This document shows, in pieces, positions 50,502-50,750 of a stretch of DNA of 64,000 bases. The notes below the pieces were generated by a model, which saw nothing but the letters and a program-made list of their open reading frames with translations, searched no databases and was not told where the DNA came from. This DNA comes from Candidatus Krumholzibacteriia bacterium (GTDB taxonomy: Bacteria; Krumholzibacteriota; Krumholzibacteriia; Krumholzibacteriales; Krumholzibacteriaceae): positions 32,001 to 96,000 of the forward strand of contig CAWIIQ010000003.1 of NCBI GenBank assembly GCA_963836185.1. The letters run 5' to 3'. Numbering within the stretch: the stretch's first letter is position 1; the number at the start of each line of letters is the position of its first letter. Both the position numbers and the translations under genes were made by a program.

Positions 50502-50698
50502 TAAAGAAGCCCCCGGACGAAGGCCGGGGGCTTAATGATCTTCGGCAGATTTTGTGGGTGCAGGGCACCGCCTTACGGCATGCCTTATGCGCCGCCGAAT
50601 CTCAATGTCACGACGCCGGACGGCAGCGTTCACTGCCACAATTCACCACACTCGCCACTGCCGGGGTCGATCGACCGGGAACCTTTCGGCTCCGAAGT
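50502..50698 (-). ncRNA. Candidate stand-alone structured ncRNA (~195 nt) of unrecognised class
   Basis: Bounded by TTGACA-N17-TATCTT (50705-50733) and a terminator (50503-50533); GAAA and GUAA GNRA-capped hairpins; multibranch fold with G-U pairs on the minus strand; no ORF with an RBS. Confidence 0.65.
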
Positions 50699-50713
50699 CG
50701 AAGCAAGATAATG

Positions 50714-50750
50714 AAAGGCCCGGTCCGTGTCAACACGGCCGGGCCTTTTT
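50714..50750 (-). terminator. pdxJ terminator with the embedded -35 box of the ncRNA promoter
   Basis: AAAGGCCCGG..CCGTGT-ca-ACACGG-CCGGGCCTTT. Confidence 0.75.

Follow-up and report, generated by a model that had tools for sequence, protein, structure and literature searches.

A putative orphan structured RNA gene in the pdxJ-ald gap of a genus of uncultured Krumholzibacteria

Does the gap between the convergent genes pdxJ and ald contain an RNA gene of its own and, if so, to which kind of RNA does it belong? The gap is part of a 64-kb stretch of DNA (the window; C3:32001-96000) from the 3.5-Mb genome G000. On its left is ald (alanine dehydrogenase, 49308..50429, plus strand; Pfam AlaDh_PNT_N and _C), and the named best homologues of its product are mostly from Ca. 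Krumholzibacteriota. On its right is pdxJ (50775..51495, minus strand), which is the upstream neighbour of the putative RNA and is encoded on the same strand. PF03740 matches pdxJ in two pieces, and alignment with the intact gene from the relative G021 shows that the frame is shifted by one extra base near 51085. A similar frameshifted appearance was seen at the start of ligA (44400-44534), in a polysaccharide deacetylase gene (51495-52709) and in a fused ORF (46881-48749). The source assembly probably contains indel errors, so that single-base indels within the RNA may be artefacts. Further along, at 53004-56058 on the minus strand, there is a tandem run of four to five similar lipoprotein-like ORFs of ~200 aa, which end in a 'WVLRAxYDLG'-type motif. 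The three that were scanned have no Pfam match.

The transcription unit in the pdxJ-ald gap

Full copies of the element are present in four of the seven genomes of the genus (G000, G021, G022 and G024), always within the pdxJ-ald gap. The copies from G021, G022 and G024 have 81-87% identity and are the only ones that blastn detected beyond the source among 52 genomes of the order. A pattern scan of metagenomes yielded three real loci (L079, L132 and L138) among the 79 matches listed. The L132 sequence is identical to that of G022, which leaves six distinct full sequences, two of them nearly identical (G022 and L079).

There are three hairpins in the gap (50465-50491, 50507-50533 and 50717-50745). 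An earlier note on this window had read three terminators here, together with a leftward TTGACA-N17-TATCTT promoter that overlaps the terminator hairpin of pdxJ, and these readings hold. The hairpin after pdxJ (50717..50745) has the -35 box (TTGACA, 50728..50733, minus strand) at its tip. The -10 box (TATCTT, 50705..50710, minus strand) follows after 17 nt, and both boxes and their spacing are identical in all six homologues. This is the sole promoter-like site in the 800 nt from 50200 to 51000 (one found; shuffled sequences gave 0.4). The hairpin is flanked by TTTCATT on the minus side and by TTTTT (50746-50750) on the plus side, and it is probably a two-way terminator. Its stem varies in step among the homologues (GGCCCGG/CCGGGCC, GGTCCGG/CCGGACC). 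The pair next to TTGACA in this hairpin is disrupted in L079, where the hexamer itself is kept.

The RNA ends in an intrinsic terminator of its own (50497..50533, minus strand), with a stem at 50533-50507 and a T-rich tail. This terminator forms with a probability of 1.0 in all six predicted transcripts and is kept in the relatives G019 and G023. None of the six predicted transcripts has a competing antiterminator. The best pairing of the body with the 5' arm of the terminator reaches -11 to -12 kcal/mol, versus -17 to -22 kcal/mol for the hairpin (6/6). The terminator hairpin of ald follows (50465..50491, plus strand) and is also present in G019 and G023. As the earlier note had stated, no gene lies downstream on the RNA strand before the convergent ald. 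The length from promoter to terminator is 200-202 nt in 6/6 homologues, and the body in between is 157-162 nt long. With a promoter nested in the terminator of pdxJ, the transcript would begin near 50699, at G50699 or A50698, and RNA polymerase would always stop at 50533-50497. The constant length, the terminator probability of 1.0 and the lack of competing pairing suggest that the RNA is made constitutively and whole.

The run index returned one run, a metatranscriptome. It contains a single 163-nt contig, flanked by adaptor on either side, which covers only 50552-50666 and thus lies wholly inside the body (10 differences in 115 nt, 91% alike; depth 3.6). Six of the eight listed changes are at unpaired places of the fold favoured below, and the other two keep P5 pairs. 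One change breaks an A-U pair of the GGCAG/CUGCC hairpin that had been drawn in the earlier note. Over 19.9 kb, the same run gave seven pieces, six of which (34-43 nt) are in ald and one in the RNA; the six ald pieces come from contigs that continue unlike the window. The contig hints at the transcript of an RNA homologue; it may represent a single molecule, either strand, or DNA. Metatranscriptome reads had been suggested as a check, and they provided a homologous fragment; as this is strand-ambiguous, it does not establish a discrete minus-strand transcript.

Selection and the conserved fold

In the body, 95 of 161 columns are invariant in the six homologues. The two core blocks are invariant in 51/61 columns, versus 63/130 for the four-fold sites of ald, counted in these six sequences (Fisher p 3e-6, for sequences that are kin and not independent). 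The least conserved part is the linker at 50610-50602, with one invariant column out of nine. Selection on core, promoter and terminator persists among homologues whose third-position identity is 74-85%. The distance from core to core, taken modulo 3, is 1, 0, 0, 0, 2 and 2 across the homologues, so that neither strand has a conserved reading frame. A plus-strand ORF (50474-50752) was considered as a gene and rejected because its frame is not kept among the homologues. We consider it very probable that the element is a genuine RNA gene and is under selection.

The earlier note had argued that GNRA loops and G-U pairs fit only the minus strand, and the homologues bear this out. Both GNRA loops remain GNRA in 6/6 homologues, and on the minus strand the paired columns contain 24 G-U cells versus 5 A-C cells. 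Folding energy is suggestive but by itself does not tell the strand (z of -3.2 versus -3.5 for the two strands when the terminator is included). For the body alone, z on the RNA strand is modest (-0.4 to -2.4).

Fold counts were made on alignment A4 (six sequences), and the favoured model was drawn from the same sequences. In this model, 94.7% of 281 cells are paired, while slid controls pair just 27-39%. Conservation in relatives, to which the earlier note had looked, is seen in four of seven genomes and in metagenome loci, and five pairs are changed on both sides, a result reached by 1/500 shuffles in a test that related sequences can pass without any structure.

The 5' hairpin P1 (50672..50699, minus strand, as are all parts of the fold) consists of GAC/GUC and GGAGCC-GNRA-GGYUCC (94% and 97% paired), with GAAA, GUAA or GCGA as its loop among the homologues. 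A pseudoknot, PK1 (50611..50669), is formed by CGAC-C-CCGG (50669-50661) and CCGG-C-GUCG (50619-50611). It crosses P2 to P4 and is 87.5% paired, and three of its eight pairs are changed on both sides. G022 and L079 differ at only three positions of the body, and two of these form one PK1 pair, which changes from G-C to A-U. P2 (50543..50657; YGGCG at 50657-50653 with YGCYG at 50547-50543) is 100% paired, with one-sided changes only. Its 3' strand has an alternative partner in GGCGG (50596-50592), a helix that is 95.8% paired, and the data fit either.

P3 (50554..50651) pairs GUG(W)GGU (50651-50645) with ACCCAC (50559-50554), and 36/36 cells are paired. As its six pairs never vary, P3 rests on complementarity and on the bulge at 50648, the one variable base of an otherwise invariant 15-mer, and not on covariation. 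P4 (50597..50644) pairs GAAYY (50644-50640) with RRUUC (50601-50597), with 30/30 cells paired; in L138 it reads GAACU/AGUUC, a two-sided change. As judged from the aligned homologues, P4 (in L138) and PK1 (three two-sided pairs) provide the best evidence for the fold. The hairpin P5 (50623..50639; GUGGY/GYYGC with the loop AGUGAAC) lies inside P4 and is 76.7% paired in a fixed register. In G022 and L079, it is re-formed with a shift of one base as GAUG/CAUC. The junction strand GGCGGC (50591..50596) is invariant in 6/6 homologues. The P6 arm (50560..50590) is built from GCA/UGC, a URA/C internal loop, GGC/GCC and GCC-GYAA-GGC. It is 100% paired and has a C-G to U-A change in L138. Within P6, GGCRUGCY (50577-50584) is self-complementary in 6/6 homologues. 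This is explained by the P6 pairs, but pairing between two RNA molecules could also occur at this site. In the modelled arrangement, P4 is predicted to stack on P3 at a three-way junction, P6 would branch off there, PK1 would lock the fold, and the GYAA loop of P6 probably docks on a helix.

Before PK1 is included, the nested part of the favoured model falls short of the free minimum by 11-21 kcal/mol. ViennaRNA cannot score PK1 and prefers other folds without it. The nested fold from RNAalifold is 95.0% paired with four two-sided pairs (28/500 shuffles). It has the same PK1 and P6 but pairs the two GGCG strands with the two CGCY strands the other way round. We set it aside because it accounts neither for GAAYY/RRUUC nor for the shifted P5 of G022; six related sequences fit either fold and cannot settle the GGCG/CGCY partner swap.

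The fold drawn in the earlier note had a four-way junction. It is 87.4% paired with three two-sided pairs and is reached by 220/500 shuffles; under constraint, it has -64 to -15 kcal/mol across the homologues. Several of its parts survive: the GGAGCC/GGUUCC hairpin (97% of cells), the 3' arm GGC/GCC with GCC-GNRA-GGC (100%), and the GAAUU/GAUUC pairing, which had been called only possible and is now P4 (30/30 cells, changed on both sides). UGUGG/CCACA is better drawn as GUG(W)GGU/ACCCAC with 50648 bulged (36/36). The other helices are poorly kept, namely GGUCG/CGACC (70% of cells), CGGCAG/CUGCCG (78%), GGCAG/CUGCC (67%) and GCGUCGU/GCGGCGC (83%). The four-way junction is therefore the energy minimum of one sequence and not the conserved fold.

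Range of the element and its loss within the genus

Among the matches listed and the genomes scanned, the RNA is so far confined to one genus of uncultured bacteria. A two-block pattern matched four of 208 genomes of the phylum, all from this genus, and was missing from the other 204. When pattern and blastn searches over the 208 genomes were combined, nothing remained outside the genus after two short extra matches had been dropped. One of these (G068) sits inside a 506-aa ORF, and the other (G169) reads as coding DNA. Within the order, 49/52 genomes have pdxJ, and many other genera with pdxJ facing ald lack the insert.

Two covariance models of the RNA were also used. Model R1 detected no homologue outside the genus, either in the order (52 genomes) or in the class (151 genomes); its three weak matches show no resemblance to the RNA on reading. 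Model R2 found none beyond the genus in the phylum (151 genomes), the family (41 genomes) and five unrelated genomes, and it was empty in 151 genomes from the phylum of a Gemmatimonadaceae locus. Its six weak matches leave the RNA core uncovered and read as coding DNA, and by their sequence two of them look like pnp.

In a GTDB scan, four matches among the at least 119 listed are real (G021-G024). R1 was applied to the first 80 of these matches, and all listed matches were read by eye. Blastn against phages and plasmids detected no copy; the best match (H16) is 30 nt long and is located in what reads as coding DNA. No homologue was among the results of five viral scans (0, 12, 35, 11 and 0 rows). 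As the collection scans rest on exact motifs, remote relatives could be missed. The source genome has neither a second copy nor tandem repeats of the element, and the best matches to the RNA elsewhere in it are 13-18 nt long, which is chance level.

Within the genus, the RNA is absent from G019, G020 and G023, with deletions of three different shapes. In G019, the last bases and the terminator remain, while promoter and body are gone. In G020, the hairpin and the start of the RNA remain and are followed by a direct junction to the ald side, the body being gone. The promoter boxes of G020 are decayed (ATGACG at -35, CATCCT at -10). That both boxes decayed in a genome without the body, while the hairpin stayed, ties the promoter to the RNA. 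In G023, just the 3' third remains, fused to the pdxJ stop. In this remnant (L010:1487-1540), P6 is shorter (AGGC-UUU-GCC) and a GUGC/GCAC pairing is longer. The remnant may preserve a more distant version of the RNA, or it may have drifted since.

In a tree of ald, the genus is one clade (100/100), and the three genomes without the RNA and one with it (G024) are unresolved at its base. The end points of the deletions differ, which points to three events in a genus with an element-bearing ancestor. We infer three separate losses, with misassembly as the alternative. Three losses in seven genomes indicate a weak need for the RNA. Most likely, it entered the ancestor of the genus from outside.

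Relation to known RNAs and possible roles

Rfam 15 gave no match at the gathering cut-off in the 64-kb window. A loose search (E<=10) returned seven matches below the cut-off, mostly on terminators, and none covers the core. Five homologous loci gave 18 such matches, none of them recurring on the body. The cmscan proposed in the earlier note thus identified no Rfam family at the element. That note had also stated that the element does not look like tRNA, SRP, 6S, tmRNA or RNase P, and we concur. ARAGORN found 47 tRNAs and one tmRNA in the genome, none of them at C3:82.5 kb, and RNase P and SRP RNA have no Rfam match at the element (E<=10), whose absence from 204 of 208 genomes of the phylum would not suit an essential single-copy gene. 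The genome has its own 6S RNA (RF00013) at C1:1727883-1728068. 6S RNA is near 190-200 nt, stand-alone and dispensable, which is reminiscent of the element; unlike the element, however, it folds into a long rod that opens into a bubble at its centre. Motifs reminiscent of ZTP, THF, c-di-AMP, HDV and group I intron RNAs were set aside, as cmscan gave no such match. In the literature, the five core motifs were found in no paper text, though candidate-motif tables in supplements could hold the RNA. Nothing was found on riboswitches of Krumholzibacteria.

RNAs that depend on a protein partner were considered and rejected. A Y RNA would be accompanied by Ro60, but none of the seven genomes of the genus has a Ro60 (TROVE) gene, while the control was positive in 2/14. 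A TnpB guide RNA does not fit, with PF07282 in 0/5 genomes and pdxJ and ald as neighbours. For a retron or other RT-linked RNA, an RT was found only in G019, G020 and G024 (3/7), and it is absent from G000, G021 and G022, which keep the RNA. RtcB is present in 5/5 genomes and does not single out a partner. There are two RtcB-family genes in G000 (C1:1555092-1556390 and C2:168391-169683) and one in each of the four relatives tested. None of the guessed partners (Ro60, RT, TnpB and RtcB) tracks the presence of the RNA.

The closest likeness is to raiA RNA, a stand-alone and abundant RNA of similar size (PMC10861870). Both RNAs contain GCGAGUGUGG, and the element, like raiA, would be stand-alone, about 160-250 nt long and pseudoknotted, with invariant junction bases. 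The raiA consensus contains GCGAGUgUGG and, upstream of it, a CCAC segment. In our reading of the consensus together with PMC12968392, P3 of the element may resemble P4 of raiA, each being read as a bulged GUG-N-GG/CCAC helix. The strand order is opposite, as the CCAC partner is 3' in the element and 5' in raiA. According to PMC12968392 and PMC10861870, raiA is defined by a P1 with two bulges, a PK-L linker and two other pseudoknots. The linker is given as UUAGA(A/C)GUAA with PK1 and PK2 (PMC12968392). P1 of raiA joins the 5' and 3' ends and has GU and GGU bulges, whereas the 5' end of the element is a local hairpin. The element is devoid of the PK-L linker motif, and its own pseudoknot differs. 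Also absent are UUAGAAGUAA, GAAAGUC, CCAGGUC and the P1 bulge motif. The only match to RF03072 in the genome (18.6 bits, cut-off 101.3 bits) is elsewhere than the element. In the control, RF03072 recovered true raiA RNAs in 2/5 other genomes, with 138 and 133 bits (L311:1501-1759 and L312:1501-1666, from the genomes behind L222 and L218), and model R2 does not match these two RNAs. Finally, raiA occurs in over 2,500 species, but the element in one genus. The 11-mer to which the earlier note had pointed is thus really shared, but a relationship with raiA does not follow, as the 11-mer is isolated and the defining parts are absent.

ROOL, GOLLD and OLE are likewise structured and pseudoknotted, with a function that is poorly known (PMC12286853). 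The ROOL studied has 659 nt and many GOLLD exceed 800 nt, versus ~200 nt for the element. ROOL is abundant but was non-essential in one strain (PMC12286853). The element is devoid of the phage or tRNA-island context of ROOL, GOLLD and OLE. The element is a new RNA family within a known kind, the orphan structured RNA gene, and not a member of any known family. This agrees with the earlier proposal of a stand-alone structured ncRNA of a new class, for which the missing Rfam match, the two-sided changes, the promoter decay and, weakly, the metatranscriptome fragment speak; its action in trans is what we infer.

We favour, with about even confidence, a folded and dispensable RNA that binds a protein or ligand as a decoy or scaffold and acts in trans. 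The invariant unpaired GGCGA, GGCGGC, URA and the loop GUG..CG would form the working surface for a protein or a small ligand. Such an RNA would be an accessory, useful under some conditions and lost once its partner or trigger is gone. Its stand-alone way of working would be as in raiA, ROOL and GOLLD.

Alternatively, the RNA may have belonged to a mobile or defence module whose protein gene has disappeared, be it as an antitoxin RNA, a guide scaffold or a domain derived from an intron, and may now be disappearing itself. Its presence in one genus only (4/208 genomes of the phylum) and the three different deletions would fit this. The layout of promoter, pseudoknot and terminator also recalls type III antitoxin RNAs. 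We nevertheless regard this as unlikely, because core, promoter and terminator are under selection at 74-85% third-position identity, tandem repeats and a second genome copy are missing, TnpB, Ro60 or a matching RT do not accompany the RNA, and no copy is among the phage, plasmid and viral matches listed. A self-cleaving or self-processing ribozyme would have its candidate pocket in the invariant junction bases within the pseudoknot. The compact pseudoknot, the invariant unpaired purines and the invariant helix sequences are compatible with this. The element also contains UCGGCGG, a stretch known as a glmS motif, while GGCGA recalls J4/2 of HDV. The cleavage-site strand of glmS is AGCGCC. This motif and the P2.1 motif are absent from the element, although both RNAs have a pseudoknotted core. 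RF00234 does not match, glmS is not downstream, no Rfam ribozyme matches up to E 10, and neither a substrate nor the gene context calls for cleavage, so that this reading appears rather unlikely. The roles of P2.1 and P2.2 in the glmS ribozyme are described in PMC7125110.

A switch acting in cis is quite improbable. It could be an aptamer that controls antisense read-through into ald, the gene that faces the RNA beyond the terminator, or it could belong to the 3' end of the pdxJ transcript, given that the U tail of the pdxJ hairpin is weak on the RNA strand. The two GGCG and two CGCY strands would permit two well-paired alternative folds. Against this, the terminator probability is 1.0 with far weaker rival pairing (6/6), a second hairpin follows, and many relatives have the same pdxJ-ald arrangement without such an element. 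A 5'-leader riboswitch was rejected, as ald is convergent and none of the six has an antiterminator. Own promoter, own terminator and a typical length would also suit a small RNA that regulates mRNAs by base pairing. We rate this as very improbable, because the conserved bases are mostly paired internally, conservation is lowest in the longer unpaired linker (1/9), and matches elsewhere in the source genome are just 13-18 nt, at chance level. With its conserved bases paired internally or in short junctions, the RNA is expected to work by its three-dimensional shape and not by pairing with mRNA. The least probable of these readings is a permuted, much reduced raiA offshoot that keeps only the P4 junction. 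GCGAGUgUGG and the upstream CCAC in the raiA consensus, with their pairing as P4 in our reading with PMC12968392, would support it. It is opposed by the lack of an RF03072 match here, by R2 missing two true raiA RNAs, by the reversed strand order and by the absent motifs, and PMC10861870 describes even the shortest raiA variants as having P1, P3 and P4.

Whatever partner the favoured decoy or scaffold may bind, the RNA represents a new family with a distinct predicted fold, and it is small enough for direct transcription, probing and imaging. The finding is limited in reach, as the RNA has a narrow range and no host in culture. Stand-alone bacterial RNAs of such size and complexity, once understood, proved to be catalysts or core regulators. 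It is doubtful that the RNA is the first of a new catalytic or ligand-sensing class, with a new pseudoknotted fold, a GGCG/CGCY two-shape switch and a wider family undetected elsewhere. The classes raiA, ROOL and GOLLD are themselves still without a function (PMC10861870 and PMC12286853). Here, the genus offers a natural experiment, as four species keep the RNA and three have lost it separately, and a whole-genome comparison of the two groups could name the partner of the RNA.
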